From: Minisyncoccota bacterium
GTDB taxonomy: Bacteria; Patescibacteriota; Minisyncoccia; Phycocordibacterales; XYD1-FULL-46-19
Length of the DNA stretch: 64,000 nucleotides
Direction of reading: 5' to 3'
Assembly (NCBI GenBank): GCA_041665625.1
Contig: JBAYIK010000001.1
Span: 2,091-66,090 of the forward strand
The translations under genes and the position numbers were made by a program. Below the pieces are notes generated by a model. It was not told the DNA's origin. It did not search any database and was given only the letters and a program-made list of their open reading frames with translations. Below are positions 13,272-64,000 of the stretch, piece after piece. Position 1 is the stretch's first letter, and each line of letters opens with the position of its first letter.

Positions 13272-13309
13272 CCTTGAAATGAAGCGGTGAACCATCACCA
13301 TGACCGAAA

Positions 13310-16433: not shown

Positions 16434-16435
16434 AC

Positions 16436-17509: not shown

Positions 17510-17547
17510 TACCTGGCCCTTCCTTTCAACCTCTAACCTGTAACCCC

Positions 17548-17586
17548 CCGCCTGCTGAGCTTTGCTCGGCAGGCGGTTTCTTTTTG
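17548..17586 (+). terminator. Rho-independent terminator.
   Basis: Stem CCGCCTGC...GCAGGCGG followed by TTTCTTTTT. Confidence 0.7.
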
Positions 17587-17666
17587 GCTTTACTTAGAAA
17601 GTTTTTAATGTTAGTAATTAGCCAGGTTTGAACAAATATGGGTTTTAACAGAAGAGGAATTAGCTC

Positions 17667-18050: not shown

Positions 18051-18139
18051 TTCACCCCACCGTTGGCCTTGGCTGGCGGTGGGATTTGCCTTTTTGGGCC
18101 TTTTCCTGTATAGTTAGACGGTCCTAAATACATATCATT

Positions 18140-19688: not shown

Positions 19689-19698
19689 ACTTAAAAAT

Positions 19699-20613: not shown

Positions 20614-20654
20614 TTATTTGTAACTAGTTGTATAATTAAGAGGTAAATATATCT

Positions 20655-35411: not shown

Positions 35412-36287
35412 TTATGCCAATCTAATTTCTCCCATCGTTTCTTTGATTATTCCTTTAATTTCCATTGTCGAGAGGACGATATTGGCTTCGGCCGTAGTGA
35501 GTTCGGCGACCTCGATTAATTCATCACGGGGAAAGGAATCGGTTTCTAAGATATCAACAATTTTTTGTTCGACAGGGGAGAGATTGAGGAAGAGACGGCC
35601 TTGTTTTTCTTTCTCTTTCTCCTCGAGATTAAATCCGAGGGCCTGAAGCAAGTCCTCACTCTTGTTAATAGGCATGGCTCCTTGCCGGATTAAACCATTC
35701 GCTCCGCGTGAAGAAGGCGAGAAAATAGAGCCCGGCACCACTAAGACGTCTCTGTTATATTCCATTGCGAGACGGGCGGTGATTAGAGTTCCTGATCTTT
35801 CCCCTGCTTCTATAATAAGAGTGGCATGAGAGAGTCCCGCCATAATGCGGTTGCGGCGGGGGAAGGTGTGGAGGCCAGCGGGGCATTCGGGTTCTAGTTC
35901 GGACAATAAAGCTCCACCTCGCTCTATTATCTCATCTGCGAGCCGGTGATTGGTGAAGGGATGGAGAACCTGGCGATCAGTACCAGAACCAGGGACAGCA
36001 ATGGTCAATAAATTATTCTTAAGCGCACTCTGGTGGGCGATAGTGTCGATACCAAGAGCGAGGCCCGAGACGATGACAATCGGGTAGCCGATGAGACCAG
36101 CAATTAATTCTTCACAAGCTTCTTTGCCATAGCGCGAATATTTGCGCGAGCCGACAACGGCTAAGAATTTGTACTCATTATCCTTAGGCAACTCCCCTTC
36201 TAGATATAAAAATTCTGGCGGATCGTTAATTTCTTTAAGTAGAGCGGGGAATTGGTCAAAGTTTAATTTTTTAAATTTAGATTTCAT
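35412..36287 (-). CDS. dprA: DNA processing protein A (DprA/Smf).
   Basis: 'FLAVVGSRKYSRYGKEACEELIAGLIGYPIVIVSGLALGIDTIAHQSAL'. Start placed at internal Met MKSKFKK, because the longer ORF would overlap serS divergently. Confidence 0.8.
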   Translation of the reverse strand: MKSKFKKLNFDQFPALLKEINDPPEFLYLEGELPKDNEYKFLAVVGSRKYSRYGKEACEELIAGLIGYPIVIVSGLALGIDTIAHQSALKNNLLTIAVPGSGTDRQVLHPFTNHRLADEIIERGGALLSELEPECPAGLHTFPRRNRIMAGLSHATLIIEAGERSGTLITARLAMEYNRDVLVVPGSIFSPSSRGANGLIRQGAMPINKSEDLLQALGFNLEEKEKEKQGRLFLNLSPVEQKIVDILETDSFPRDELIEVAELTTAEANIVLSTMEIKGIIKETMGEIRLA

Positions 36288-36348
36288 ATCCACTTTGTCA
36301 TGGAGGCTGAACTTTATTTTATCAATAAATCTGTTATAATCAAAAAAT

Positions 36349-37611
36349 ATGTTAGATATCAAATTCATTCGGGAGAACAAAGATCTTATTGCTGAAGCCG
36401 CGCGCAAAAAGCGTCTCGATTTTAAAGTTGACGAGTTGCTTAAAATTGACGAGGAGCGCGTTAAGGTTGTCTCTTTTGTTGATGAACTCCGTCGCCAGCA
36501 GAATGAAGCTAGTGAAGGAATTTCTCAAGCAGAGGGAGAGATTAAGCTTAAGCTGATTGAGACAATCTCAAGTGTTAAAGGTGAATTACAGAAGAAAGAA
36601 GAAGAACTTAAAGAGATAATGAAGGCTTGGCAGGCCCAAATGCTTCTCGTCCCTAATATCCCTGACATCAGTGTTCCTGAAGGAAATGATGATTCTGATA
36701 ATCAAGAAGTCAAAGTTTGGGGGGAAAGACGCAAGTTTGATTTTGCGGCCAAAGATCATGTTGAACTAATGCTTAATCTCAAACTTGCCGATTTTGACCG
36801 GGGGACTAAGGTGGCTGGCTTCCGTGGTTATTTTTTGAAGAACGAAGGGGCTGAGCTCTCTATGGCTCTCTGGCACTACGCTATGAGCGTGGTGCGAGAA
36901 GATGGTTATACTCCGTTAATGGCGCCGATCATTGATCGGCCAGAGATGTTTATGGGCACTGGATATTTGCCTCAAGGCGAAGAAGATTTATATAAGATTC
37001 AGGATGGTGAATATTTGGCTGGTACGGCTGAAGTCCCGACTATGGGTTATTATTTTGACGAAGTAATTCCGCGCGAGCATCTGCCAATTAAATTTGTTGC
37101 CTTTTCTCCATGTTATCGTCGCGAGGCGGGTAGCCATGGTAAGGATACTAAGGGGCTTATCCGTGTTCACGAATTTTATAAGGTAGAGCAAGTGGTTTTG
37201 TGTGAAGCCAGTCATGAAGAAAGCGTGAAGTACCATGAGCAGATTCTGGCTAATGCGGAGAAAATTATGCAGGGCTTGGAGATCCCTTATCATGTTGTCG
37301 TCAATTGCACTGGCGACTTAGGTCAAGGTCAGGTCAAGAAATATGACATTGAGGCTTGGGTGCCATCAGAGAACAAATATCGTGAGACCCATTCCATTTC
37401 CTATTTCCATGATTTCCAAACTCGTCGTTCTAATATTAAGTATAAGGATGCCGAGGGCAAGATGCGCCTCGTTCACTCTTTGAACGGTACCGCTCTCGCT
37501 TCACCTCGTATCCTTGTCGCCTTGCTTGAGAATTATCAGCAAGCCGATGGCTCGATTTTGATTCCTAAAGTTTTGCAGCCTTATCTTGGTGGACGCACGG
37601 TCATTAGTTAA
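36349..37611 (+). CDS. serS: Seryl-tRNA synthetase.
   Basis: N-terminal coiled-coil 'MLDIKFIRENKDLIAEAARKK', class II core motifs, and the C-terminal 'ASPRILVALLENYQQADGSILIP'. Confidence 0.9.
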   Translation: MLDIKFIRENKDLIAEAARKKRLDFKVDELLKIDEERVKVVSFVDELRRQQNEASEGISQAEGEIKLKLIETISSVKGELQKKEEELKEIMKAWQAQMLLVPNIPDISVPEGNDDSDNQEVKVWGERRKFDFAAKDHVELMLNLKLADFDRGTKVAGFRGYFLKNEGAELSMALWHYAMSVVREDGYTPLMAPIIDRPEMFMGTGYLPQGEEDLYKIQDGEYLAGTAEVPTMGYYFDEVIPREHLPIKFVAFSPCYRREAGSHGKDTKGLIRVHEFYKVEQVVLCEASHEESVKYHEQILANAEKIMQGLEIPYHVVVNCTGDLGQGQVKKYDIEAWVPSENKYRETHSISYFHDFQTRRSNIKYKDAEGKMRLVHSLNGTALASPRILVALLENYQQADGSILIPKVLQPYLGGRTVIS

Positions 37612-51407: not shown

Positions 51408-53213
51408 ATGGAAATACGAAATATCGCTATTATTGCTCACGTTGACCACGGCAAGACCAAATTGACCGACGCCCTTTTGCGTCAGACAGGAATGGTCGCC
51501 GAGGGCTTTAGTATGGACTCTAATGCCCTGGAGCAAGAGCGCGGCATCACTATTTACTCTAAGAATGCCTCACTTTTCTATAAAGATACCAAAATCAACA
51601 TTGTTGATACCCCAGGGCATGCCGACTTCGGTTCAGAGGTTGAGCGTGTTTTGCGTTCTATCGATGATGTGGTCCTTGTTGTGGACGCTCAAGAGGGTCC
51701 AATGCCCCAGACTCGCTTTGTTCTCAAGAAATCTCTTGAACTCGGCCTTAAACCAATTGTGGTTATTAACAAAATTGATAAACCTGCTTCTGATCCTCAC
51801 CGCGCCGAAGAGGAAGTCCTTGAACTCTTCATGGACTTAGGTGCTAGTGATGAACAACTTAATTTTACTGCTGTTTATGCCATTGGGCGTGATGGTATCG
51901 CGAAATTGAAGTTGGAGGATGAGAGTAAGGATATTACCCCTTTGCTCGATACAGTTCTCTCCAAGATTCCCCCAGCTGAGACTAATATTAATATCCCTTT
52001 CCGGGCACAACCCTTTAACTTGGCCTATGATAATTACCTTGGACGTTTGGCCATTTGTCGTGTCTATGAAGGTAAGGTAAAAACTGGTGAGACTGTTTTA
52101 ATAAAAAAATTAGATACTCCCGACTACACGGGCAAGATTACCAAGATCTTCACCTTCCGTGGTCTTGAACGAGAAGAAGTAACCGAAGCCATGGCCGGAG
52201 ACATTGTTATCATTGCGGGTATTCCCAACATTTATATCGGTGAGACCATTTGTCTTGACCCGGCGAGCGAGCCGCTTCCGGCTATCTCTGTCGACGAACC
52301 AACCATTGCTCTTAATTTCATGGTTAACGATTCACCTTTTGGTGGTCGTGAAGGGAAATATGTCACCAGTCGACAAATTCGTGATCGTCTAGAGCGAGAA
52401 CTTGAAGTTAACGTTGGCCTCAAGGTTGATTTTTCTGGCGGCGATAAGTTTAAGGTTTTTGGCCGAGGTGAATTACATATTTCTATTTTACTTGAGAATA
52501 TGCGTCGTGAGAATTATGAGATGTCAGTCTCTCAACCTCAGGTCATTATCAAAGAAATTCACGGTGTTAAAGTTGAACCGTTCGAAGAAGTCACCATCGA
52601 TGTTCCCTCTGAGCACCAAGGTGCGGTTATTGAACGTTTGGGTAATCGTGGCGCTGTCATGATGAATCTCAAGCCGACCGGTCATGGCAATACCGTCCGT
52701 CTTACTTTCGAAGGACCAACAAGAGGTCTCCTCGGTTATCGCAACCAATTTATCGTCGATACTAGGGGTGAAGGGATCATGTCTTCTCGGGTTGTTGGCT
52801 TTAGGACTTATGCGGGGGAGATTAAAAAAACCCAGTATGGCTCAATGATCTCAATGATCACTGGTAAGGTCTTAGCCTATGCTCTCGACAACTTGCAAAC
52901 CCGGGGGACTCTTTATATTTCCCCTGGTGATGAAGTTTATGAAGGACAAGTGATTGGTAATACCTCTAAAGGTGAGGAAATGCCCGTTAATCCGATTAAG
53001 GGGAAACAACTTACTAATATGCGGGCGGCTGGTACTGACGATAAGGTTATGTTGGCTCCACCTTTTATTCTTACTATTGAACGTGGGCTTGAAGTTATGG
53101 CGGAGGATGAATATCTTGAGGTTACGCCCAAGTCTGTTCGCTTACGCAAATCGATTTTGACCGAGACCGAACGTTCTCGCAATAAGCGCACAACTTTCAA
53201 ACCTGGGGTCTAA
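51408..53213 (+). CDS. typA: Translational GTPase TypA/BipA.
   Basis: '[22 protein letters not shown]' and '[14 protein letters not shown]'; EF-G-like domain order. Confidence 0.9.
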
Positions 53214-53357
53214 AAAAATCACTAGAAGCTTATAAAAATGTCTGGCCGAAATCGTAGATTGAGGAGATCCGAGGACTTTTTAGAAGCTTGCTGGTGATTT
53301 TTTCTCCTCGTGTATCCCGGCCAGACATTTTCAAAAGGCTGTGCCGGTTTTCGCTTG
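53213..53357 (+). repeat. Nested inverted repeats immediately after typA, followed by a GGCTGTGCCGGTTTT hairpin motif.
   Basis: AAAAAATCAC at 53213 pairs with GTGATTTTTT at 53295 (10 bp). AAAATGTCTGGCCG at 53235 pairs with CGGCCAGACATTTT at 53318 (14 bp). Inner stem GAGGAGA/TCTCCTC. Confidence 0.5.
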
Positions 53358-53707
53358 CCAAGTTTTCCACTTTTTGTCATTGCCACTTTTTTAGTTGGTG
53401 GTACTATTTAATTAGATTGCACATGCGTGCGGTCCGACGAAATGTTGGTTGGGCCAAGACGCTCAACCCGGCAGCAAACTGGAGGATCCAGGCTCTATGA
53501 AGACGGCAATGACGGCGAAGTTTGACGGCATGACATTCGTGGGCGGCATCGAGCAGACGTTCAGCAGCGCGGCGTGCGTGGTGAGCTGAACAACGCGAAG
53601 AAGGGGAGGCACGTCCGCTAGATGGGACGTTGCCTTGCTACTAAAGAAGACCCCCGATGAGGCAGTGTGCCGTCGGGGGTTTCGATTTTTTATATTTAAT
53701 TTTCTAA

Positions 53708-54403
53708 TTATTTTTCTGAAACTGTCACACTCTTGATAACAACATTCTCAATTGGTTTGTCACCGGGAGCAGTTTTGACTTTGCCGATAGCATCAACTAC
53801 ATCTTGCCCCTTAATTACTTTTCCAAAGATGGTGTAAGCGTTAGGGAGGGGATTATTTTCTAACATGATGAAGAATTGTGAACCGTTAGTGTTGGGACCG
53901 GCGTTAGCCATGGCGACTACTCCTTTCTGATAGCCAGCTTTGTAAGAGGCGGTCTCTGGATTAAGTTCATCGGCAAATTGATAGCCGGGGCCACCAGAAC
54001 CACAAGCTCCACCCTTGGTACAATTTGGATCTCCTCCTTGGATCATAAAGCCCGAGATCACACGGTGGAAAATGAGGCCATCATAATATTTTTCCTTAGC
54101 CAGCTTAACGAAGTTAGCGACGGTATTAGGAGCATCATTATTATAAGTTTCAAACTGGATTTCTCCCATTGATGTTTCTAGAGTAACGATATTTGTCATT
54201 TTTTTATTATTAAGGTTATTAATTGGGGCTCCCGCTTGGATAACACTGGCTTGCTGTTGACTTGTTGAGGCAAGATTGCCGATGATTGTTGAGGTCGCAG
54301 TTAAACTTTCTGTTGTGTCTCGGTCAGCCTTATAGAGCCAAGCGCCAGCAAGTATCACTAAGACGACCAGAACGAGAGCGATGAGATAATAATTTTTTTC
54401 CAT
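53708..54403 (-). CDS. ppiB: Cyclophilin-type peptidyl-prolyl cis-trans isomerase with an N-terminal membrane anchor or signal.
   Basis: 'FHRVISGFMIQGGDP' and 'GTLAMANAG-like VVAMANAGPNTNGSQFFI'. Confidence 0.85.
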   Translation of the reverse strand: MEKNYYLIALVLVVLVILAGAWLYKADRDTTESLTATSTIIGNLASTSQQQASVIQAGAPINNLNNKKMTNIVTLETSMGEIQFETYNNDAPNTVANFVKLAKEKYYDGLIFHRVISGFMIQGGDPNCTKGGACGSGGPGYQFADELNPETASYKAGYQKGVVAMANAGPNTNGSQFFIMLENNPLPNAYTIFGKVIKGQDVVDAIGKVKTAPGDKPIENVVIKSVTVSEK

Positions 54404-54476
54404 TAAATTTGCGAGTTAAGCTTATAATTTTTACTAAACTAGATTAGATTATAGCAAATTTTTATAGTTCTCAATA

Positions 54477-54507
54477 ATTGACAATTATTACTTAAATAAG
54501 TATAAAT
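54477..54507 (+). promoter_or_regulatory. Sigma70 promoter TTGACA-N17-TATAAA.
   Basis: 'ttgacaattattacttaaataagtataaat'. Confidence 0.5.
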
Positions 54508-54569
54508 GTGGGTGGAATCTTTGTCTGTCAAACCAAAACGAGCTCGAGAGAGCGAGAAGGAGACTTTGT

Positions 54570-55200
54570 CATGTTTCTTGGTACTCACTGGGTTGTCTGG
54601 ATTCTTATTCTGGCCTGCTGCCTTGTCAGCGCACGCCTCGCTGGGTTGACTTCCCAAAAATTGGATCAGTGGAAGATTCGGAAAGATCGACTCCGGCGAA
54701 TGGCTGACATGCCGGCTCTCTTCCTCTCTGGGGCCACTGTTTCGCGTGGCGAAGCGGTGAATTTTCACCGTTGGCTTGAGCAGGGGCTTAAGCTTCCGAA
54801 GGCTTGGGGAATCATCGACCGGGAGAAGTTCTCAGCCTGGCTTTTGGATTCGGGGAACCGAGCCAAGGTTACCTGTACCATTGAGGCCCTCAGGCGAGGG
54901 AAACTCGGGATGTTCACCCCCACGTTTGATGGTCTTGGTCGGGCCGTCGTTAGCCGGGTTTCTGAACTTGGCTTTACACTGGAAGACTTTGACCTGACTG
55001 TTACGGGTGTTGAGGATATGGTGAAGTCGGCCAAGGTCGCCTGGGCCAAAGAGGAAGCCAGGAAAATTGGCTGCTCACTGTCAAACCTCAGGATTCAAAA
55101 GCAGTCCCTGAAGGAGACGGTTGAGGGTTGGGGCTTTCCCCTCGCATGCGAAGAGCTTGGACTCCGTGACATTGTGAACAGTGATTTCTGGGATTTGTAA
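54570..55200 (+). CDS. Hypothetical membrane-anchored protein, GC-rich.
   Basis: AGGAG RBS before MFLGTHWVVWILILACCLV. Followed by a strong GC hairpin terminator. Confidence 0.5.
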
Positions 55201-55221
55201 GCCCCCTGTCATTTCTTGCCC

Positions 55222-55258
55222 CCCCCGGCGCGCGAACGCGCCGGGGGATTGTTTTTTC
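55222..55258 (+). terminator. Rho-independent terminator.
   Basis: CCCCGGCGCG-cgaa-CGCGCCGGGG followed by ATTGTTTTTTC. Confidence 0.8.
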
Positions 55259-55294
55259 TATAATTAATTATGGTTTTGTGGTAAGTTAGGGAAA

Positions 55295-56074
55295 ATGAAA
55301 AAAGATTTTAAAAAAGAAATTGAATGGATTAAGAAAGATAAGTATCCAGATGAGCCTAGCGAAGTCCGACTTCGGGCTCACCTGAAGTCGGACTTCGCTA
55401 GGCTGGGAAAAGGCGAACCAATTGATTATATCATTGGGTGGAAGGAATTTTTGGGTTGTAAAATTGATTTGAGTGAGAAGCCGTTAATTCCAAGGGAAGA
55501 AACGGAATTTTGGGTGGGGGAGGCAATTAAAGAAATTCCCAAGGACTCTCCTTTGGGGCCCTCTCAAGGAAAGTCCTTTGGAATTAGGGCTCTCGATATT
55601 TTTGCTGGCTCTGGTTGCATTGGCCTAGCTGTTTTGAATCATTGTCCTGAGCTGAAGATGACCTTTGCTGATAAAGAAGAAAAATGTATAAAGCAGATTA
55701 AGAAAAATTTGAAACTCAATAAACTTAGAGGGAAAGTCATTCAATCAGATCTTTTTAAAGGGCTCGGTAAATTCGACATCATTTTTGCTAATCCTCCTTA
55801 TATCCCAACCAAGAAATCTAAAGTGCAAAAGTCTGTTAAAAACTGGGAACCCAAGGAGGCTCTTTGGGCGGGGGCAGACGGCCTCTTGATTATTAAGAAA
55901 TTTTTTAAAGAAGCAAAAGGTCACCTGAATCCTAATGGTAAAATTTACCTAGAATTTGGCTATGGCCAGAAAAAAGCCATCGAAGATCTTTTAAAACAAA
56001 AGGGGTATAAGTCTTGGGAATTTAAAAAAGACCAATTTGGCCGCTTCCGAGTGGCTAAAATTATCGGTGGATAA
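55295..56074 (+). CDS. prmC: Release-factor glutamine N5-methyltransferase (HemK/PrmC).
   Basis: 'GEPIDYIIGWKEFLGCKIDL', 'LDIFAGSGCIGLAV' and 'IFANPPYIP' (NPPY). Contains the in-frame palindromic element at 55354-55403. Confidence 0.85.
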   Translation: MKKDFKKEIEWIKKDKYPDEPSEVRLRAHLKSDFARLGKGEPIDYIIGWKEFLGCKIDLSEKPLIPREETEFWVGEAIKEIPKDSPLGPSQGKSFGIRALDIFAGSGCIGLAVLNHCPELKMTFADKEEKCIKQIKKNLKLNKLRGKVIQSDLFKGLGKFDIIFANPPYIPTKKSKVQKSVKNWEPKEALWAGADGLLIIKKFFKEAKGHLNPNGKIYLEFGYGQKKAIEDLLKQKGYKSWEFKKDQFGRFRVAKIIGG

Positions 56075-56140
56075 GGGTTTTTGTTGCCAAAGGAGGAAAG
56101 TGATACAATAAAGCCATATAAGTTTGATTAAAAATAATAT

Positions 56141-58573
56141 ATGGAAAAAGTAGAAAAGAACAAAGCGTTTATCCTTTGGTTCAATGAATTAGCAATTAGT
56201 GATATCCCACTTGTTGGCGGTAAGAATGCCGCTCTTGGTGAAATGTTTAATAATCTTGTACCTCTTGGTGTTAATATCCCTAATGGTTTTGCTATTACCG
56301 CTTATGCTTACGCTTATTTCCTCGAGAAGACTGGACTTAAACAAAGAATTAAAGAGGTTCTAACTGATCTCAACACTCATAATATTAAAGATTTGCAGAA
56401 ACGTGGGGCAATGGTTCGCGAAATGATTATTAAAGAAGAGTTGCCTGATGAGCTTAAGTCCGAGATTGTTGAGGCCTATCATAAGCTCTCTGGGACCTAT
56501 CATCTTAAGGCTGTCGATGTGGCTGTGCGTTCTTCGGCTACGGCTGAAGACCTTCCCGGTGCTTCTTTTGCTGGTCAGCAGGAAACCTTTTTGAATATCA
56601 ATAGTGATAAAGAGCTAATGCTCGCCGTGCGCAAGTGTATGGCTTCGCTCTTTACTAACCGCGCTATTTCTTACCGTGTTGATAAAGGCTTCTCGATGTT
56701 TGATGTCTTGCTTTCGGTTGGTATTCAGAAAATGGTTCGTAGTGATATTGGTAGCTCCGGTGTGATGTTCTCTATTGATACGGAGACTGGTTTTGATAAA
56801 GTCGTTGTCATCAATGGCGCTTATGGCTTAGGTGAATTTATTGTCTTAGGTCGTGTCACCCCCGATGAATTCTATGTCTTCAAACCATCGCTTGAGCGTG
56901 GTTATAACGCTATTCTCTCGAAGACTCTTGGTAAGAAAGATGTTAAATTGATTTACGACAAGAGAGGGACTAAGAAAGTTAATGTGCCTAAAGCTGATGT
57001 TAATAAATTCTGCCTCAAGGACGACGAAGTGGCCAAGCTTGCTATCTGGGGTGTGACGATTGAGAAATATTTCTCTAAGAAGCGAGGCAAATACCAACCT
57101 ATGGATATGGAGTGGGCCCGTGACGGTAAGACTGGCGAATTATTCATTGTTCAGGCCCGTCCTGAGACTATCCACGCTGATCAGAACAAGGATGTTTATG
57201 AGGAATATGTTATTAAAGAGAAAGGTGTCGAATTAATTAAGGGTACTGCTGTTGGTGCCAAAATTGCTTCTGGCCGCGTTCGTATCATTCGTGATGCCAA
57301 GCAGATGAGCACCTTTAAAGAAGGTGAAATTTTGGTTACTGAGATTACCGATCCTGACTGGGAACCGATCATGAAGATTGCTTCGGCTATTATCACCGAG
57401 AAAGGTGGGAGAACTAGTCATGCTGCCATTGTCTCACGAGAGCTCGGTGTTCCTTGTATCGTTGGTACTGGCAACGCGACCAAGAAATTAAAAAATGGTC
57501 AGCTTGTCACCGTTGATTGCTCGTCTGGTAAAGAAGGTGTTGTTTACGATGGCAAAATTTTGTTCGAGAAAAAGGAGCACCACTTAGATCACTTGCCAAA
57601 GACGAGGACTAAAGTCATGTTGAATATTGGTTCACCTGAAGAAGCTTTCCGTAATTTCTATCTTCCGGTCTCGGGTGTCGGCTTGGGACGCTTGGAATTC
57701 ATCATTAGCTCTTATATTAAAGTTCACCCCAACGCTCTGCTTGATTATAAAACTCTAAAGACGAGTAAAGATCCTCGCGCTAAGAAAGCCGTTAAAGCGA
57801 TTGACGAATTAACAGTAGAGTACGCCAACAAAGCTGATTACTATGTTGGTGAGCTGGCTGAAGGTATTGCTACTATTGCCTCGACCTTCTATCCTGGTGA
57901 AGTTATCTTACGTTTTTCTGATTTCAAAACTAACGAATACAGCACTCTAATTGGAGGAGACATGTATGAGCCAGTTGAAGAAAACCCAATGATTGGTTGG
58001 CGTGGTGCTTCTCGTTACTATGATCCTAAATTCCGTCGCGCCTTTGCCCTTGAATGTCGTGCTATGTATAAAGTGCGCACCGAGATGGGGCTCTCTAATA
58101 TTGTGCCAATGATTCCTTTTTGCCGTACCGTTGAAGAAGCCAAACAAGTAATTGCGATTATGGAAGAAGCGGGCTTGGACCGCAAGGCTGACCCATCGCT
58201 TAAGGTCTATGTGATGTGTGAGATTCCTTCGAACGTGGTGGAGGCCAATGAATTCTTAGATGTCTTCGACGGTATGTCGATTGGTTCTAACGATCTTGCT
58301 CAACTCACTCTTGGTCTTGACCGTGACTCGAACCTTATCAACCATATTGCTAACGAGAACCACCCAGCTGTAAAGAAAATGATTGAAGTGGCTATCAAGG
58401 CGTGTCGTGACCGTAATAAATATATTGGTATTTGTGGCCAAGCCCCGTCTGATTATCCAGAATTTGCCGATTTCTTAGTGAAGGCCGGTATTGGGAGCAT
58501 CTCCCTCTCGCCAGATTCCGTTATCAAAACCCTGTCTATCATTGAAGCCGCGGAGAAAAAATATCCTCAATAA
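56141..58573 (+). CDS. ppsA: Phosphoenolpyruvate synthase (pyruvate, water dikinase).
   Basis: 'AVRSSATAEDLPGASFAGQQETFLN', phospho-His 'GGRTSHAAIVSRELGVPCIVG', and a C-terminal PEP-utilising TIM barrel. Confidence 0.9.
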   Translation: MEKVEKNKAFILWFNELAISDIPLVGGKNAALGEMFNNLVPLGVNIPNGFAITAYAYAYFLEKTGLKQRIKEVLTDLNTHNIKDLQKRGAMVREMIIKEELPDELKSEIVEAYHKLSGTYHLKAVDVAVRSSATAEDLPGASFAGQQETFLNINSDKELMLAVRKCMASLFTNRAISYRVDKGFSMFDVLLSVGIQKMVRSDIGSSGVMFSIDTETGFDKVVVINGAYGLGEFIVLGRVTPDEFYVFKPSLERGYNAILSKTLGKKDVKLIYDKRGTKKVNVPKADVNKFCLKDDEVAKLAIWGVTIEKYFSKKRGKYQPMDMEWARDGKTGELFIVQARPETIHADQNKDVYEEYVIKEKGVELIKGTAVGAKIASGRVRIIRDAKQMSTFKEGEILVTEITDPDWEPIMKIASAIITEKGGRTSHAAIVSRELGVPCIVGTGNATKKLKNGQLVTVDCSSGKEGVVYDGKILFEKKEHHLDHLPKTRTKVMLNIGSPEEAFRNFYLPVSGVGLGRLEFIISSYIKVHPNALLDYKTLKTSKDPRAKKAVKAIDELTVEYANKADYYVGELAEGIATIASTFYPGEVILRFSDFKTNEYSTLIGGDMYEPVEENPMIGWRGASRYYDPKFRRAFALECRAMYKVRTEMGLSNIVPMIPFCRTVEEAKQVIAIMEEAGLDRKADPSLKVYVMCEIPSNVVEANEFLDVFDGMSIGSNDLAQLTLGLDRDSNLINHIANENHPAVKKMIEVAIKACRDRNKYIGICGQAPSDYPEFADFLVKAGIGSISLSPDSVIKTLSIIEAAEKKYPQ

Positions 58574-58579
58574 AATAGT

Positions 58580-59587
58580 ATGGCAAAAATACAATTTTTT
58601 GAATTAGAAGATTGGGAGAAGGAGCACATCAAAAAAGAATCTCTGTCTGGTGAAGTCGAGATTGTTGATGGTGTTTTAGACGAAGCCAAGATTCCTTTTG
58701 ACACCAGTGCCGAGGTCATCTCAATTTTTGTTAACTCGGTGATCAATGAAGGGGTCCTCTCTCGTTTACCTAAACTCAAGTTGATTACTACGCGTTCAAC
58801 CGGCTTCGATCATATCGATATCGCTGCTTGTAAGTCTCACGGCGTGGCGGTGGCGACAGTTCCTTCTTATGGTGAAGATACTGTGGCCGAATACACTTTT
58901 GCTTTAATGCTTAATCTGTCGCGCAAGGTGGGTGAGAGCAGTGAACGTATTAAAGAGACTGGGAGCTTCAGTTTAGATGGGCTACGAGGTTTTGATCTCA
59001 AGGGTAAGACCTTGGGTGTCGTTGGTACCGGTAAAATTGGCAAGAACGTGATTGAAATTGCGACTGGTTTCAACATGAATATTATCGCTTACGATAAATT
59101 CCCTGATGGGGCTTACGCGACGAAGATGAATTATAAATATTTGCCATTTGAGGAGGTCTTGGCACAAGCAGATATTGTTACTCTTCATGTTCCTTATATG
59201 CCAGAAAACCACCACTTAATTAATGCGGACGTTCTTTCTAAAATGAAGAAGGGTGCTTATCTCATCAACACGGCTCGTGGGGCGCTCGTTGAGACTGAAG
59301 CCTTACTAAAGAGCCTCAAGGAGGGTCACTTAGCTGGCGCCGGACTCGATGTCTTGGAAGAAGAAGGTGTGATCAAAGACGAACTTAATTTCTTGGTTGG
59401 AGGGCATCCCGGTGAGCACGACCTTAAAGTTATTTTGGCTGGTCATGCACTTATTGATATGCCTAACGTTATTATCACTCCCCACAACGCTTTCAATACT
59501 TGGGAGGCTCTTCAGCGCATCTTAAATACAACCCTTGATAACATTAAGGGATATATTGCTGGCCAGCCAATAAATTTGATCAAGTAA
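58580..59587 (+). CDS. D-isomer-specific 2-hydroxyacid dehydrogenase (D-lactate / phosphoglycerate dehydrogenase family).
   Basis: NAD motif 'LGVVGTGKIGKNV'. Catalytic 'NTARGALV...HNAFNT'. Confidence 0.8.
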   Translation: MAKIQFFELEDWEKEHIKKESLSGEVEIVDGVLDEAKIPFDTSAEVISIFVNSVINEGVLSRLPKLKLITTRSTGFDHIDIAACKSHGVAVATVPSYGEDTVAEYTFALMLNLSRKVGESSERIKETGSFSLDGLRGFDLKGKTLGVVGTGKIGKNVIEIATGFNMNIIAYDKFPDGAYATKMNYKYLPFEEVLAQADIVTLHVPYMPENHHLINADVLSKMKKGAYLINTARGALVETEALLKSLKEGHLAGAGLDVLEEEGVIKDELNFLVGGHPGEHDLKVILAGHALIDMPNVIITPHNAFNTWEALQRILNTTLDNIKGYIAGQPINLIK

Positions 59588-59660
59588 CCCCTTGGCATTA
59601 TTTCTCTAAAGGTATAAAGTTTATCTAGACAACAGCCTTTTGAAAGGCAGGAGGTGATTT

Positions 59661-59816
59661 ATGGATTCCCTCGCGTTTCTGCTGGCTCTTTTGTGGAATT
59701 GGGTGACCTCAGGCTTCCATCGAATCGTTGAGGCCTTGTCGCCTTCCGTCCCCCCTGAAACCTCTGATGAGAAGAGAAGGGGTGAAATCACGGATTCCTT
59801 TAGATGGGAACCGTAA
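59661..59816 (+). CDS. GC-rich small ORF (51 aa). Low confidence.
   Basis: RBS GGAGGTG; N-terminal hydrophobic 'LAFLLALLWNWV'. Confidence 0.25.
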   Translation: MDSLAFLLALLWNWVTSGFHRIVEALSPSVPPETSDEKRRGEITDSFRWEP

Positions 59817-59879
59817 CTCGTCTTGAACCAGGTTGGGCAGAAAGTCTTGCCTCGGTCGAAGGCGGGTTTTCTGTTTCGG

Positions 59880-59920
59880 AATAAAAAAGCATGCCCCGGA
59901 CCTGTGGAAGGTCCGGGGCA
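59880..59920 (-). terminator. Terminator for the minus-strand SixA-like gene.
   Basis: GCCCCGGACC-tgtggaa-GGTCCGGGGC, with a T-run on the minus strand (plus-strand 'aataaaaaagc'). Confidence 0.7.
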
Positions 59921-59938
59921 GTGTTCGTCTCGTTGCTC

Positions 59939-60421
59939 TCAGATTGGGGGTCTGAGAATTTTGGTCTGCTGACCATTGGCCATCACTATCGCTTGACCTG
60001 GCTCAAGGTCTAGATCTTGGATATCCTCGACCGTGGAGAAAGCCGTCATTCGCCAGAAGTAAGTGGCAATACTCTTGGCGAATGGCTTGTGGGTGACAAG
60101 AATGAGTATCACCGCCCCTTCTTTTTCCTTGGCGTCGAGAATCTCCTTGACCCTCCCATAGTTGAAATGACGCGTGACATCTTGGTTGAGGACGTCGGAC
60201 GTCTCCAGTTTGGCGTGGAGAACTTCCTCCAAGATCTGGGCCGTCTCCACAGCCCGATTGGCCGTGGAGCTGACAATGGTCACGGGGTATTCTCCCACGA
60301 CTTCCTTGAGCTCCTCGGCCAGAGCCCAAGCCTGCTCTCGGCCGTATTCACTCAAGCGATCGGTCTTCAACTCTGGATCTCCGTCATAGGCACAATGCCT
60401 TGCGGCGACAATGTCTTTCAT
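59939..60421 (-). CDS. Histidine-phosphatase-superfamily protein (SixA / phosphohistidine-phosphatase-like), GC-rich.
   Basis: Catalytic 'ARHCAYD' RHG-type motif; about 160 aa. Confidence 0.65.
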   Translation of the reverse strand: MKDIVAARHCAYDGDPELKTDRLSEYGREQAWALAEELKEVVGEYPVTIVSSTANRAVETAQILEEVLHAKLETSDVLNQDVTRHFNYGRVKEILDAKEKEGAVILILVTHKPFAKSIATYFWRMTAFSTVEDIQDLDLEPGQAIVMANGQQTKILRPPI

Positions 60422-60518
60422 AATATCGTCTCCTTTTTGCCAAAGGGCAAAGGTTTCTTTCTGGCTTCATTTATACACGAATATTGTCTTGTGTCTAGCT
60501 TATTGCTAAGATACCCTT

Positions 60519-61682
60519 GTGAAAGAATTTGGCTTTAAAATTGAGAAGAAGATTCCTGGGCGCTTAGGGCGGGCTGGGGTTATTACGACGCCACACGGGG
60601 AGATTAAAACCCCAGCTTTTGTGACGGTGGGAACTAAGGCGACGGTTAAGGCTTTGACTCCTGAGATGGTGAATTCGCTTGGCGCCCAAGTCGTGCTCGC
60701 TAATACTTATCATTTATATCTTCAACCCGGTGATGATCTGGTCGCCAAGGCTGGTGGCCTCCACAAATTTATGAATTGGCAGGGACCAATGATGACCGAC
60801 TCCGGCGGCTTCCAAGTTTTCTCGCTTGGTGCGGCTTTTGGTGAAGGGGGAGTATCTAAATTTGCTAAAGAAGGTGTACAGAAGATTGAAGAACTAGCTA
60901 AAGAAGATGACGTTACTGTGAAGTTAGCCAAGATAGATGAAGATGGTGTCACTTTCAAATCGCACATTGATGGTTCCCTTCATCGCTTCACTCCGGAGCG
61001 TTCGATGCAGATTCAACATAACTTAGGCGCGGATATTATCTTCGCTTTTGATGAATGCACTTCGCCGTCGGCTGATTATGATTATCAGAAGCAGGCAATG
61101 GAACGAACTCATCGTTGGGCAAAAAGAAGTCTCGATGAACACAAAAAAATAAAAGCAGGCGAGCAAGCTTTATTTGGTATTGTTCAAGGCGGCCGGCATC
61201 AAGATTTGCGTGAAGAGTCAGCCAGGGTTATTGGTGGCATGGACTTCGATGGCTTTGGCATTGGTGGCTCATTTGATAAAGAAGATATGGGGACCGCTGT
61301 TGGTTGGGTCTCGGCAATACTTCCCGAAAACAAACCTCGTCACTTGCTTGGCATTGGTGAACCGGAAGATATTTTGGAGGGGATTAAGAATGGGGCCGAC
61401 ACTTTTGATTGTGTTACTCCCACTCGTATGGCTAGAAACGGTACTTTGATGGTGAAGGGAGGTAGACTTAATATCTTGAATGCCCAATATCGCGAAGATT
61501 TCACTCCGATTGAAGAGGGTTGCGGTTGTTATACTTGCCAACATTATACTCGTGCTTATCTTGCCCACCTCTTCCGCGCTAAAGAAATGTTGGCCGGAAC
61601 TTTAGCCTCGGTTCACAATCTCTACTTCTTAATCCATTTGACAGAACAGATCAGACAAGATATTTTAGAGGGCAGAATGTAG
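60519..61682 (+). CDS. tgt: Queuine tRNA-ribosyltransferase.
   Basis: 'MTDSGGFQVFSLG' and the zinc site 'CGCYTCQHY'. GTG start. Confidence 0.9.
   Translation: MKEFGFKIEKKIPGRLGRAGVITTPHGEIKTPAFVTVGTKATVKALTPEMVNSLGAQVVLANTYHLYLQPGDDLVAKAGGLHKFMNWQGPMMTDSGGFQVFSLGAAFGEGGVSKFAKEGVQKIEELAKEDDVTVKLAKIDEDGVTFKSHIDGSLHRFTPERSMQIQHNLGADIIFAFDECTSPSADYDYQKQAMERTHRWAKRSLDEHKKIKAGEQALFGIVQGGRHQDLREESARVIGGMDFDGFGIGGSFDKEDMGTAVGWVSAILPENKPRHLLGIGEPEDILEGIKNGADTFDCVTPTRMARNGTLMVKGGRLNILNAQYREDFTPIEEGCGCYTCQHYTRAYLAHLFRAKEMLAGTLASVHNLYFLIHLTEQIRQDILEGRM
61638..61682 (+). repeat. Direct repeat copy 1 (the 3' end of tgt); a diverged copy sits at 62063-62107.
   Basis: TTTGACAGAACAgatcagacaagATATTtTAGAGGGCAGAATGTA versus TTTGACAGAACAaattaggaatgacATATTAGAGGGCAGAATGTA. 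Confidence 0.7.
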
Positions 61683-61729
61683 CTTGTGATTAAACTCCTC
61701 GCTTTTGCGAGAAACCGGAGGACAAGGCT

Positions 61730-62002
61730 GTGAACGTAAAAGGATATCTGTTTGAGAAGTGGCCAACGTTGGTCATGGTCGTGGTTATCATCGCTGTCGG
61801 TGTTTTGTTTTACACCACACGGGAGACCAACCCGGCTTTCTTTATCCACGAGACAACCTTCAACCGCGAATTGGCGGCCGGTCAACTCCACCGAGACGGT
61901 TCGTATACTTTCTTCCATGCGAATCGTTCTCGTGACGGTCGGCTGATCGTTACGAGCGAGATTGCCAGCTTCCCGGCCGCCGAGGCGGCCAAGCTTCACT
62001 AA
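61730..62002 (+). CDS. GC-rich small membrane protein (90 aa) between the direct repeats.
   Basis: TM 'WPTLVMVVVIIAVGVLFY'. Followed by terminator 62020-62065. Confidence 0.45.
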   Translation: MNVKGYLFEKWPTLVMVVVIIAVGVLFYTTRETNPAFFIHETTFNRELAAGQLHRDGSYTFFHANRSRDGRLIVTSEIASFPAAEAAKLH

Positions 62003-62019
62003 GGCCTTCGTGCCTTCTT

Positions 62020-62065
62020 CGCCCCGTCGCTCGCTGTAAGGTGAGCCACGGGGCGGTTTTTGTTT
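62020..62065 (+). terminator. Rho-independent terminator.
   Basis: CGCCCCG...CGGGGCG followed by GTTTTTGTTT. Confidence 0.7.
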
Positions 62066-62107
62066 GACAGAACAAATTAGGAATGACATATTAGAGGGCA
62101 GAATGTA
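62063..62107 (+). repeat. Direct repeat copy 2 (a duplicated tgt 3'-end segment).
   Basis: See 61638. Confidence 0.7.
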
Positions 62108-62141
62108 ACCGACACTCCTAACGGAGGAAAGGAATATCCTT

Positions 62142-62507
62142 ATGGGAGACATGTTCGTTCCCTTCGGGAAGCGCAAGAAGAAAGCTGGAACCTCGAAGCG
62201 GGGGAAGGCTGTCGCGTCCAAGAAGAAACCCGTTGCCAAGAAGAAAGTGGCAGCACCCAAGAAACCCAAGAAGAAGGCCGTCCCCAAGCGGATGAAGGCC
62301 CCGGCACCGAGGAAGCTCGATCCGGTCTCGCTGGTCCCCACCTTCTGCGGAGAAGAGGTCAACCTGTCTGATCCCACAAGGATCTTCGACCTCCATGAGA
62401 TCCTCTTCAAGCAGGGGATCCTCTCGGCCGAAGAGTACAAGATCCTTGTCGCCGCGTTGCGGGACAAAATCAACTTGGTTCTCAAGAACGAAAGGCTGGG
62501 GGTTTGA
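62142..62507 (+). CDS. Lys/Ala/Pro-rich histone-H1-like basic protein with a C-terminal SHOCT-like domain, GC-rich.
   Basis: 'KKKAGTSKRGKAVASKKKPVAKKKVAAPKKPKKKAVPKR'. C-terminal 'LHEILFKQGILSAEEYKILVAAL'. Terminator at 62533-62571. Confidence 0.55.
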   Translation: MGDMFVPFGKRKKKAGTSKRGKAVASKKKPVAKKKVAAPKKPKKKAVPKRMKAPAPRKLDPVSLVPTFCGEEVNLSDPTRIFDLHEILFKQGILSAEEYKILVAALRDKINLVLKNERLGV

Positions 62508-62602
62508 AATTCCCCGGCCACCAATGACACTCGCGGCGTTCTCCAGAAGGAGAGCGCCGCAGTTTTGTTTTAAGTGAAATTTGTGATAACATATATAAAC
62601 TT

Positions 62603-64000
62603 ATGTCAAGCAAGATTTTTAAATTACAATCTAAATTTGAGCCGGCGGGGGACCAACCTAAAGCAATTAAGGAACTGGTGGCGGGGCTCGCGAAAGGGCT
62701 GAAGCATCAGACCCTCTTGGGTGTGACGGGCTCAGGCAAGACCTTTACCATGGCCAATATCATTGAGGCTTATAATAAGCCGACCTTGGTGATTGCTCAC
62801 AACAAGACCTTGGCCGCACAATTGGCCCAAGAATATCGTGATTTCTTTCCTGACCATGCCGTCCATTATTTTGTCTCTTACTATGATTATTACCAACCAG
62901 AGGCTTATATTGCGCACTCTGACACTTACATTGAGAAGGACGCCAGCATCAATGAAGAGATTGAGCGTCTCCGTCATGCCTCCACTGAGGCCTTACTTAC
63001 TCGCAAGGATGTAATTATTGTCGCCTCTGTCTCTTGTATTTATGGACTTGGCTCGCCAGAGGAATATGCCAAGAGCTTTTTGCGTTTGCTCGTTGGTGAT
63101 AAGTACACCCGTCAAGAGATTATCGAGAAATTAATTAGTGTTTATTTTGAGCGCACCAATGCCGACCTTACGCCTGGTACTTTCCGGGCTATTGGTAATT
63201 CGGTGGAGATAATGTTGCCTGGCAGTCGCGAGATTGTGAATTTAAAAATGAACGGAGATATTATTGAAGAAATTCTCATTGTTGACTCCATTTCTCGTCG
63301 CATTATTAGTACACCAAACGAAACTTATCTTTATCCAGCCAAACATTTTATTACTACCGAGGATGACAGAAATAGGGCTATCAAATCTATTAAAGCCGAG
63401 CTCGATGAGAGGCTTAAAGAATTAGAGAAAGAAGGCAAACCTCTTGAGGTCGAACGTCTTAAACGTCGCACCAATTATGATCTCGCCATGATTAAAGAGG
63501 TTGGTTATTGCAATGGGATTGAGAATTATTCGCGCCATCTCACTGGCCGAGCCAAGGGGGAGGCCCCGGCAACTCTCTTAGATTATTTTCCTCACAATGA
63601 AGATGGTTCAGCTGACTTTTTAACTATTATTGATGAGTCACACGTGGCGGTGCCCCAGATTCGTGGGATGTTTGCTGGCGATGAGAGTCGCAAGAAGAAT
63701 CTTGTTGAATACGGTTTCCGCTTACCCTCAGCCCTCGACAATCGCCCCCTACGCTTCCCGGAGTTCGAAGAACGAGTCAATCAAGTCGTTTATACTAGTG
63801 CTACACCAGCGGACTATGAATTAGAAAAAAGTGGCAAGGAAGGAATAATTGAACAAATTATCCGTCCGACCGGTCTTATTGACCCAGAAATTGAGATTCG
63901 CCCCATCATTTCGGGTAAAACTTATGAAGGACAGGTGAAGGATTTTATTAAAGAATCTCAGAAAGAAATAAGGAATGGTCACCGTGTCATTGCCACTACT
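62603..64000 (+). CDS. uvrB: Excinuclease ABC subunit B (N-terminal ~465 aa; continues beyond the window).
   Basis: 'FKLQSKFEPAGDQPKAIKELVAGL', 'LLGVTGSGKTFTMANII' and 'VSYYDYYQPEAY'. No stop before the window end. Confidence 0.9.
   Translation, partial: MSSKIFKLQSKFEPAGDQPKAIKELVAGLAKGLKHQTLLGVTGSGKTFTMANIIEAYNKPTLVIAHNKTLAAQLAQEYRDFFPDHAVHYFVSYYDYYQPEAYIAHSDTYIEKDASINEEIERLRHASTEALLTRKDVIIVASVSCIYGLGSPEEYAKSFLRLLVGDKYTRQEIIEKLISVYFERTNADLTPGTFRAIGNSVEIMLPGSREIVNLKMNGDIIEEILIVDSISRRIISTPNETYLYPAKHFITTEDDRNRAIKSIKAELDERLKELEKEGKPLEVERLKRRTNYDLAMIKEVGYCNGIENYSRHLTGRAKGEAPATLLDYFPHNEDGSADFLTIIDESHVAVPQIRGMFAGDESRKKNLVEYGFRLPSALDNRPLRFPEFEERVNQVVYTSATPADYELEKSGKEGIIEQIIRPTGLIDPEIEIRPIISGKTYEGQVKDFIKESQKEIRNGHRVIATT

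Follow-up and report, generated by a model that had tools for sequence, protein, structure and literature searches.

A probable small-gene cassette array between tgt and uvrB in a Minisyncoccota bacterium, with a promoter-like repeat of the tgt 3' end at its junctions

In integrons the tyrosine recombinase IntI is encoded beside the cassette array (clusters of attC sites lacking integron integrases, CALINs, are without it), the attC sites carry R'' (RYYYAAC) and R' (GTTRRRY) cores, and the cassettes, most of them promoterless, are expressed from the promoter Pc. Phage morons (Juhala et al. 2000; Hendrix et al. 2000) are reportedly autonomous promoter-gene-terminator units of atypical composition that lie between genes adjacent in relatives. 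Members of the Candidate Phyla Radiation (CPR, or Patescibacteria) have tiny genomes, few recognisable mobile elements and very many orphan small proteins, and the way in which they gain accessory genes is poorly understood. Minimal mobile elements (MMEs) have been defined in Neisseria (PMC3082526, citing Saunders & Snyder 2002 and Snyder et al.), and Forsberg et al. (2021; PMC8545432) described recombinase-less islands of small open reading frames (ORFs) between purF and radC of Clostridia CAG-217, for which recombination with related DNA was proposed. Here we analyse the interval between tgt, encoding queuine tRNA-ribosyltransferase, and uvrB in a 64 kb stretch of the genome of a Minisyncoccota bacterium (contig JBAYIK010000001.1; hereafter the window, GC 44.6%). 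Judged by the genome contigs closest to its Tgt, the organism is Candidatus Vogelbacteria-like and belongs to the Paceibacteria, within the CPR. On balance we think it probable that the 922 bp separating the two genes belong to a hypervariable cassette array peculiar to this lineage, here with two units, and that such arrays turn over by homology-anchored recombination. No described tgt-linked cassette array in CPR was found in the literature.

The final 15 codons of tgt recur downstream of the gene, as the earlier note had observed: the two copies (45 nt each, spacing 426 nt; Table 1) are identical at 38 of 45 positions (84%, against the roughly 80% first estimated) and share both the 17-mer TTAGAGGGCAGAATGTA and the 12-mer TTTGACAGAACA unchanged. 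This was the sole pair among long repeats in positions 53000-64000, and a binomial estimate puts the chance expectation of such a match anywhere in 64 kb below 1e-6. Read in the tgt frame, copy 2 encodes LTEQIRNDILEGRM followed by a stop codon and copy 1 encodes LTEQIRQDILEGRM followed by a stop codon, with seven of the eight differences between them (stop codon included) at third codon positions (P = 0.0026). The arrangement is not an assembly artefact, because it was 100% identical in three separate assemblies (JGI, ENA and Logan). A chance or genome-wide intergenic repeat was likewise rejected: when the repeat was sought elsewhere, the leader and terminator motifs and the nhmmer profiles of the copy 2 module (P2) and of the first terminator (type A) matched tgt-uvrB arrays only, with no match outside them in the 1.83 Mb searched.

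In positions 59400-62800 no other stretch matches a sigma-70-like promoter as well as copy 1 and copy 2 do (10/12 each, with 17-nt spacers). The locus thus reads as two apparently autonomous units, each composed of a predicted promoter, a leader, an ORF and a terminator, with the first promoter buried in the tgt 3' end. Both units had been proposed from the DNA letters before any comparison was made, and both were borne out. Between the copies lies a GC-rich ORF of 90 codons for a membrane protein (orf90), with a predicted transmembrane helix and its own hairpin terminator, and a second GC-rich unit (orf121), again with its own terminator, follows copy 2. The G+C content at third codon positions (GC3) is 0.65 in orf90 and 0.78 in orf121, compared with 0.38-0.44 (about 0.42) in neighbouring housekeeping genes.

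About 25 related loci (given below by L numbers) were inspected, with up to 8 kb of flank on each side, and the gene order ppsA, 2-hydroxyacid dehydrogenase gene, tgt, uvrB proved to be conserved in the clade. In more than 20 of the loci tgt and uvrB are adjacent or near-adjacent, with zero to five differing ORFs between them. The two genes abut or overlap in eight relatives (gap of -18 to +62 bp: L004, L083, L006, L009, L007, L107, L017 and L095), whereas the gap measures 247-3363 bp in the window and in at least 13 others (L001, L002, L003, L005, L008, L010, L020, L082, L088, L099, L108, L128 and L173), where it contains one to five small forward-strand ORFs that differ from genome to genome. 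Adjacency is likely the ancestral state because it is widespread, and the tgt-uvrB junction is a real insertion hotspot at which the presence of cassettes differs among species-level relatives, as had been suspected for the surroundings of tgt.

A promoter-like site lies at the same tgt codons in most relatives, including the cassette-free L004, L107 and L006 (8-9/12), where from its position it could only serve uvrB. Because the repeat doubles as a predicted unit promoter and a promoter-like site occupies the same place of tgt in cassette-free relatives, conserved regulatory function would appear to account for part of the similarity between the copies. The reservation that a conserved element might explain the repeat is thereby justified in part, although the cassette polymorphism is real.

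The nearest relative found, L173 (identity of 89% for Tgt, 93% for the dehydrogenase and about 83% for DNA), carries homologues of orf90 (88% identity) and orf121 (67%) in the same order as the window, with two extra cassettes in between. Its array opens with a tgt gene bearing a type-2 tail (ending in LTNQIREKILKGEEF and a stop codon), which is followed by a 477-aa orphan ORF (GC3 0.28; no family match) and a 38-codon type-1 tgt 3' fragment. Then come a window-like leader with the orf90-like gene; terminator A, P2 and a 77-aa ORF; terminator A, a degenerate promoter and a 120-aa ORF; and, at the end, terminator B, P2, the orf121-like gene, a further terminator B and uvrB. With its 1.5-kb insertion L173 has gained a foreign tgt 3' end, the native 38-codon end being displaced. 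The displaced fragment encodes the window Tgt C-terminus exactly, with 13 nucleotide differences that amount to 12 synonymous codons and no non-synonymous one (P = 1.7e-5); since the differences are all synonymous, the fragment must have lost its coding role only recently, and the type-2 end did not originate with it. At its 3' end the 477-aa ORF is cut by the junction, which looks illegitimate because the ORF runs into the tgt fragment without an intervening terminator. An attempt to place the crossover point within the L173 tgt by a step in identity failed, identity being about 83% throughout.

Displaced ends recur in three further arrays. L002 holds five units and four tgt-end copies, including a 26-codon displaced end with one nonsense codon; L003 mirrors the window (tgt, unit, a displaced end encoding INFTKQIRNDILEGRS and a stop codon, unit, uvrB), and its real and displaced ends differ at 15 sites, 12 of which are third codon positions (P = 3e-4); and in L038 a type-2 end is followed, after 140 bp, by a displaced end of the L082 type. 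Within L173, L002 and L003 the real and displaced ends differ by 30-35%, mostly synonymously, and bear different tails. Because this divergence shows coding constraint, the displaced ends are heterologous and did not arise by tandem duplication in place. Duplicated tgt sequence ranges in length from about 45 nt (window) through 51 (L003), 54 (L038) and 78 (L002) to about 120 (L173), the homology starts at different codons, and the inserts span 0.14-1.7 kb. Direct repeats that duplicate the target-gene 3' end while the gene is restored were thus found in the window, L173, L002, L003 and L038. The proposal that the inserted DNA carries a replacement tgt end fits the four relatives, with their displaced native ends, better than the window itself: here copy 1 looks like the native tgt end, L173 having retained the same block of type-1 end, leader and orf90, and copy 2 is a member of the conserved non-coding junction module P2. 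The first ORFs of the L173 and L002 arrays (477 and 267 aa) were considered as a common mobility gene and discarded, since they are not homologous to each other and have no family matches.

Tgt tails were compared across the window (61600-61682), L009, L010, L014, L039 and others. In the clade the protein stops right after ...QIRxDIL and the tails are short and highly variable (EGRM, EGGTGRRW, DGKEF, KGEEF, DGKI and others); Tgt of more distant Paceibacteria has about 15 extra residues (FxEFKxxFLxxY). Type-2 tails, ending in GQDF or GEEF, coincide with an 18-nt overlap of tgt and the uvrB start in L004 and L107.

The P2 consensus (TTTGACAGAACAAAyTAGGArTGACATATTAGArGGCAGAATGTAACCrAC, plus leader) is represented twice in L173 (8344 and 9235) and two to three times in L002 (4839 and 6032 being the positions listed). 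The copies differ from one another at 1-5 of 45 nt, with no third-position bias, and those of the window and L173 are 96-98% identical at a divergence where synonymous sites are near saturation (synonymous divergence, dS, of about 1). Because so few differences accompany a dS of about 1, P2 is either a conserved non-coding element or one homogenised by gene conversion. Terminator families A and B are common to unrelated ORFs in three genomes (window, L173 and L002). Near-identical copies of terminator A were detected by nhmmer after unrelated ORFs (two in L173, three in L002), with the GNRA loop kept and compensatory changes in the inner stem; terminator B also stands 3' of the 120-aa and orf121-like ORFs of L173 and of a 53-aa SHOCT ORF of L002.

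A perfect 10-bp palindrome, GACGRYCGTC, occurs in L002 (4787, 5201, 6004 and 6524), L038 (893) and L088 (3459). In a comparison of 16 sources, comprising the 64-kb window and 15 related loci, it was confined to between-unit sites of the tgt-uvrB arrays of these three genomes and was lacking from the window. The next -35 element follows it at about 12-40 nt, and in L002 it is accompanied by the motif AACAAAATTTACAATCGTAAAAAATGTTA after each terminator; it may be an operator or a recombinase site. A second palindrome, TTTAC-AATC-GTAAA, is also found between units of the L002, L038 and L088 arrays, and L002-type palindromes are absent from the window array. Local alignments mostly failed to outscore shuffles (p 0.05-0.7, with 0.017 for the L088 copy), so that the post-terminator motif of L002 (AACAAAATTTACAATCGTAAAAAATGTTA) was not established as a remnant of the uvrB 5' end.

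Both cargo ORFs of the window are real genes under purifying selection. Measured against L173, the ratio of non-synonymous to synonymous divergence (dN/dS) is 0.09 for orf90 and 0.22 for orf121, with dS about 1, as in housekeeping genes. Because their distance from the L173 orthologues is close to that of housekeeping genes, the two are old residents shared with that lineage, which speaks against reading the window cassettes as recently integrated. Homologues of orf90 include P0002 (88% identity) and P0003 (47%). Its AlphaFold (AF2) model combines an N-terminal transmembrane helix with a four-stranded sheet (predicted local distance difference test, pLDDT, 71); no Pfam or PADLOC match was obtained, the best Foldseek match had E = 0.37, and a marginal PHROG match (phrog_35751, a family of unknown function; E = 0.006 over 15 residues) is uninformative. 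Homologues of orf121 occupy the same position in L173 and, at 38% identity, in L002 (a 79-aa ORF), and among 1.84 billion representatives its family comprises only one other cluster at 50% identity.

The description of orf121 as a histone-H1-like protein with a SHOCT domain survives in part. The AF2 model shows a K/P/A-rich N-terminal half predicted to be disordered and two helices in the C-terminal half; the resemblance to linker histone H1 is thus one of composition only, with no winged-helix globular domain, and neither a SHOCT nor a linker-histone domain, nor any other Pfam match at E <= 0.1, nor a PADLOC hit, was found. The link to SHOCT runs through weak BLAST chains to cassette proteins of relatives. 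A weak SHOCT-like motif is common to many cassette proteins across the clade, and one of them, the 53-aa protein of L002, reaches the Pfam threshold (PF09851, 27.1 bits for a cut-off of 27); orf90 and the 477-aa, 267-aa, 97-aa and 126-aa ORFs are unrelated to this set. Composition is similarly uneven, with a GC3 of 0.28 in the 477-aa ORF, 0.5-0.78 in the small ORFs and about 0.42 in the host. Structure proved unusable as a guide to function, since confidence in the AF2 models is modest and the top PDB matches by Foldseek reach only E = 0.37 and 4.6; PC4-like structure hits to orf90 were weak and not significant, and PADLOC returned no defence-system protein. An orf90 homologue of 47% identity lies directly 3' of miaA on an unrelated low-GC contig from another organism (L178, 1-927), where the final miaA codons embed the promoter sequence TTGACA-N17-TAACAT: the same layout at another locus, a tRNA-modification gene again holding a promoter at its 3' end.

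No tyrosine or serine recombinase was found with Pfam among the large ORFs of the 64-kb window or the array ORFs of the window, L173 and L002, and none was seen by eye in the translated reading frames beside the L085 tgt. IntI was accordingly missing beside the array in the 64 kb searched, and no element among the array ORFs of the three genomes encloses an integrase. The hairpins after orf90 and orf121 close in GNRA or AGAA loops and run into a U-tract; inspection, with no attC covariance model applied, revealed neither an R''/R' pair nor a 5' partner rich in A. The cassettes are not promoterless, every unit having a 10/12 sigma-70 match and its own terminator, and apparently independent insertions have no constant crossover core in common, given duplicated lengths of about 45 to about 120 nt. 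A phage origin found no support: in IMG/VR the terminator 19-mer had no hits, 11 hits to a degenerate leader 17-mer had flanks without similarity, and orf90 and orf121 had no viral relatives. Seven proteins tested against PHROG gave only marginal matches (E = 0.003-0.006), to orf90, a SixA-like protein encoded on the other side of tgt and orf230 (54508-55200); that of orf230 is to phrog_25190, annotated as an integrase (E = 0.0029, residues 96-168), and the protein has no Pfam recombinase domain.

In the scenario that we favour, tgt would have abutted or overlapped uvrB in the ancestor, and a promoter in the tgt 3' end probably served uvrB. Genes landing between the two would use this tgt-end promoter; each further unit has its own copy of P2, and unrelated ORFs have the two terminator types in common. 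Turnover would consist of insertion, deletion and replacement of units, with some insertions supplying a foreign tgt 3' end, so that the native one comes to lie farther downstream. We infer that recombination is anchored in short homologies, which would be offered by tgt, by its end or P2 and by the terminators. Three routes come into consideration: unequal crossing-over or deletion involving two copies of P2, which would explain the two extra L173 units; Campbell-type insertion of circularised fragments; and homology-facilitated illegitimate recombination (as defined in PMC3240628) of related-lineage DNA, which would most likely have entered by transformation. Three observations, that junction positions vary, that an ORF is truncated at one of them and that repeats stand at every unit junction, point away from a single fixed-core integrase and towards short-homology recombination, and we do not think that a cassette-encoded integrase is involved. 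DNA processing protein A (DprA), encoded in the window at 35412-36407 on the reverse strand beside topA, fits a capacity for natural transformation and would make uptake and recombination plausible.

Several points weigh against this scenario. No strain-level variation in the presence of cassettes was seen (the three assemblies of this organism are identical, and the nearest relative has about 83% DNA identity), and because of this same sampling single events cannot be dated, nor gain told from loss. At 45-120 nt and 70-85% identity, the homologous segments offer little length for RecA-dependent recombination. High GC3 persists in cassettes resident since the window and L173 split, so that a simple foreign origin is no explanation for it. 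In-place duplication and divergence must contribute some share, because many cassette proteins have the weak SHOCT-like motif in common. The promoters and terminators discussed here are consensus and fold predictions, and the 64 kb of genome and flanks of up to 8 kb leave room for a trans-acting recombinase encoded elsewhere.

Such a recombinase, chromosomally encoded, of the tyrosine or serine type and acting as in integrons or Xer-dependent elements, is the basis of an alternative that we take seriously and nevertheless rate as unlikely, in which the 45-nt module is an att site and circles of ORF, terminator and P2 are excised and re-inserted at the tgt end or at P2. It would account for tandem co-oriented single-gene units with one repeat per junction at one fixed site, for replacement 3' ends with displaced native ends as in tRNA and tmRNA islands, for the conservation of P2 far beyond that of neutral sites, for the array-specific palindromes of L002, L038 and L088 and for the apparently independent type-2-end insertions of L173 and L002. 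It sits poorly with the lack of integrase or resolvase domains in the ORFs searched, with a left boundary of duplicated tgt that moves from event to event and with the junction that truncates an ORF in L173. Inspection of P2 showed neither a resemblance to dif nor the inverted-repeat core usual in tyrosine-recombinase sites; attC R''/R' cores are missing from the terminator hairpins, and the L002 palindromes from the window array. The suggestion of site-specific integration with attL/attR-like repeats therefore keeps its hotspot and its duplicated ends, but not a recombinase among the searched ORFs or a constant duplicated length. A wider idea, which we put forward tentatively and do not expect to hold, is that the 45-nt tgt-end module serves in Paceibacteria as both recombination site and promoter of an integrase-less (or distant-recombinase) form of gene capture, an analogue of attI/attC plus Pc made from host-gene sequence.

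A purely local origin, by tandem duplication of a small gene together with its tgt-end promoter and terminator and subsequent fast divergence, without horizontal input or mobility, seems to us distinctly unlikely. Duplication from inside the tgt 3' end to beyond the terminator would yield exactly the observed layout, the U-tract abutting the repeat in the window; units share leaders and terminators, many of their products the SHOCT-like C-terminal motif, and orf90 and orf121 have been inherited vertically in the window and L173. A tandem duplicate, however, would start out identical and a dead copy would decay at all positions, whereas real and displaced ends in L173, L002 and L003 differ mostly synonymously; nor does such an origin agree with the five ORFs unrelated to the SHOCT-like set or with the heterogeneous GC3. 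We regard it as very unlikely indeed that a larger element, integrative or prophage, once occupied the tgt 3' end between attL and attR and that the array is its remnant, morons left after deletion of the integrase and most cargo. Direct repeats duplicating a gene 3' end are the classical scar of such an event, the units resemble phage morons (promoter, gene, terminator and atypical GC), and a similar history was proposed by Forsberg et al. (PMC8545432) for recombinase-less hypervariable islands. Yet none of the approximately 25 related loci has a large element, an integrase or a phage gene at tgt, the junction motifs, orf90 and orf121 had no match in IMG/VR, the marginal PHROG matches lead, for orf90 and the SixA-like protein, to families without known function and, for orf230, to phrog_25190, and the repeat stands at every unit junction and not just at two ends.

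Table 1. Features of the tgt-uvrB interval and of neighbouring slots in the window.
Feature	Coordinates	Strand	Evidence and remarks
tgt (queuine tRNA-ribosyltransferase), 387 aa	60519..61682	+	Pfam PF01702 (TGT) E=3e-143; synteny ppsA, 2-hydroxyacid dehydrogenase, tgt, uvrB in L001-L009 and L173
Repeat copy 1 (P1), within tgt 3' end (final 15 codons)	61637..61681	+	Sigma-70-like: -35 TTGACA 61638-61643, 17-nt spacer, -10 TATTTT 61661-61666; 10/12, joint best
Leader 1	61683..61729	+	Small hairpin CTCGC-TTTT-GCGAG; ribosome-binding site (RBS) GGAGG before orf90 GTG start; same leader at L173 orf90 homologue
orf90, small membrane protein	61730..62002	+	Transmembrane helix 3-33 and four-stranded sheet; conserved C-terminal FPAAEAAKLH
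Terminator type A	62019..62066	+	16-bp stem with one mismatch, GNRA loop (GUAA), then GGUUUUUGUUU; abuts copy 2; hairpin 62019-62056 with U-tract -29.9 kcal/mol, z=-5.0 (RNA fold)
Repeat copy 2 (P2 module; tgt-end mimic)	62063..62107	+	Sigma-70-like, extended -10: -35 TTGACA 62064-62069, TG, -10 CATATT 62087-62092; 10/12
Leader 2 (CCGACACTCCTAACGGAGGAAAGGAATATCCTT)	62108..62141	+	Small hairpin CTCC-TAAC-GGAG over RBS; conserved with L173 PD and L002 a/c/d leaders
orf121	62142..62507	+	Disordered Lys/Pro/Ala-rich N-half, two C-terminal helices with SHOCT-like motif (GILSAEEYKILVAAL); uvrB-proximal cassette
Terminator type B (GCGGCGTTCTCC-AGAA-GGAGAGCGCCGC and U-tract)	62533..62570	+	Hairpin 62533-62560, -28.2 kcal/mol, z=-6.6
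uvrB promoter-like box (TTTGTGATAACAT) and uvrB 5' part	62580..64000	+	ATG 62603; runs past window edge; box conserved in L001, L003, L005, L008; tblastn synteny
Second variable slot, dehydrogenase gene to tgt	59588..60518	.	orf51 and SixA-like gene; no flanking repeats
orf51	59661-59816	+	Conserved terminator 59846-59876
SixA-like histidine phosphatase gene, GC-rich	59939-60421	-	GC3 0.64; terminator 59892-59920 (-)
orf230	54508-55200		GC3 0.59; promoter TTGACA-N17-TATAAA 54478-54506; GC hairpin terminator ~55218-55250

The small leader hairpins listed in Table 1 were dropped as significant RNA structures, their folds not being significant alone (z = -0.4 and -1.1, the latter for leader 1), and no known RNA family was matched by Rfam at E <= 0.1 in window positions 53-64 kb, L002 or L173. 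UvrB Pfam domains are present in the L173 and L179 gene calls.

On the other side of tgt, the GC-rich unit singled out in the earlier note lies in a slot that does vary among relatives (a 65-aa ORF in L173, a 165-aa ORF in L002, a 157-aa ORF in L085 and only 14-46 bp in L004, L007 and L008), but it lacks flanking repeats. The slot contains a conserved terminator just upstream of tgt. The SixA-like protein matches His_Phos_1 (PF00300; E = 6.2e-9, 36.2 bits for a cut-off of 21.7) over residues 22-78 only. In L082 (6442-6909, reverse strand) a SixA-like gene occupies the same slot in the same orientation, with the same 5' leader hairpin (CCTTTTGCCAAAGGGCAA), although it is AT-rich and its product only 28% identical; this could reflect extreme divergence or the replacement of one allele by a distant xenologue, the regulatory flanks being conserved. 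The unit at 54500-55260, previously grouped with the insertions, does not belong with them: orf230 is conserved in L173 (about 82% DNA identity), has a distant homologue in L082 and is not flanked by repeats.

Two dispersed palindromic elements were encountered. A near-perfect 24-nt inverted repeat (AGCCTAGCGAAGTCCGACTTCGGG / CCTGAAGTCGGACTTCGCTAGGCT) lies at 55353-55404, inside a prmC-like ORF (55295-56074), and has kin inside tgt of L173 (5803-5839) and L088 (2085-2121) and also in L107, L086, L008 and L006. By analogy it looks like a small palindromic mobile element inserted in frame in genes, like the Rickettsia palindromic elements, and may explain the range of Tgt lengths in the clade (387-442 aa). 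The second element (inverted repeats I3/I4) is intergenic in the window, after typA (53215-53345). Its copies in L082 (186-235, 7647-7667 and 10126-10146), L001 (4619-4672), L173 (11069-11122), L002 (3228-3248), L004 (6692-6712) and L038 (174-199) include some inside tgt (L001, L002, L004, L038 and L082) or uvrB (L173), and match odd peptide inserts.

Elsewhere in the window, larger GC-rich blocks at 8531-13340 and 16141-18120 (GC 0.55, GC3 0.63-0.70) encode a PPDK_N-like protein of 596 amino acids, an Orn/DAP decarboxylase, a class I/II aminotransferase and a 357-aa unknown protein; these are probably horizontally acquired metabolic genes, with a composition like that of the small cassettes. 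A stretch of GC 0.56 between typA and a cyclophilin gene (53400-53700), with a 46-aa ORF (53449-53589), a hairpin and T-run at about 53640-53690 and no Rfam match, may be another one-gene unit or a small RNA. A single ORF of 2299 amino acids (22212-29111, forward strand), downstream of cohesin and Ig-domain proteins (18360-22127), probably encodes a giant surface protein.

The locus offers what seems to be a concrete and searchable case of a fixed hotspot between housekeeping genes at which self-expressing one-gene units would accumulate, and the foreign tgt ends show the entry of DNA from other lineages. If units do turn over through short promoter and terminator homologies together with transformation, this would be a simple recombinase-free flux of accessory genes that standard mobile-element finders miss. 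The locus also supplies candidate CPR promoters, leaders and terminators.

Among the systems introduced above, integron arrays and CALINs resemble the tgt-uvrB arrays in their fixed site, tandem co-oriented and mostly single-gene cassettes, small orphan proteins, junction repeat and varying content. The tgt arrays differ in having neither IntI (in the ORFs searched) nor attC (on inspection), in giving each cassette its own predicted promoter and terminator in place of a shared Pc, and in a junction repeat that imitates a host-gene 3' end. L173, L002 and L038 recall the islands and prophages that insert at the 3' ends of tRNA, tmRNA or protein genes and supply a replacement end: tgt is intact in each, with a foreign (type 2) working end, and farther downstream its native end persists as a direct partial repeat. 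Unlike such elements, the arrays have yielded no integrase, have inserts of 0.14-1.7 kb and a variable duplicated length, include a junction that truncates a cargo ORF and, in the window, retain a tgt end that appears native. Morons are matched in unit anatomy, in atypical composition (as GC3) and in insertion between otherwise adjacent genes, but the tgt units lie among housekeeping genes of a CPR chromosome and not in a prophage, with no phage genes nearby and no viral homologues found.

The closest parallels are the two kinds of locus described without a recombinase. The tgt-uvrB interval, like MMEs (PMC3082526), which are incorporated by homologous recombination following uptake of DNA, has two conserved flanking genes with differing whole-gene cassettes between them and no mobility gene in or beside the site; its junctions fall within homologous modules, and its host encodes DprA. 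It departs from MMEs in being a tandem array of up to five units with a promoter-bearing repeat from the 3' end of the left gene at every junction, and in events that duplicate and replace the tgt 3' end, unlike the double-crossover exchange of MMEs; the genomes compared here are, moreover, species-level relatives and not strains. The islands of Forsberg et al. (PMC8545432) are likewise short hypervariable stretches of small ORFs between conserved genes, with no integrase, transposase or recombinase to account for their turnover; those islands share prophage genes and are anchored by acrIIA22, whereas the tgt array is anchored by its promoter-bearing repeat and shows no link to phages. What this locus adds to MMEs and to these islands is the promoter-bearing repeat of a flanking-gene end at each junction.

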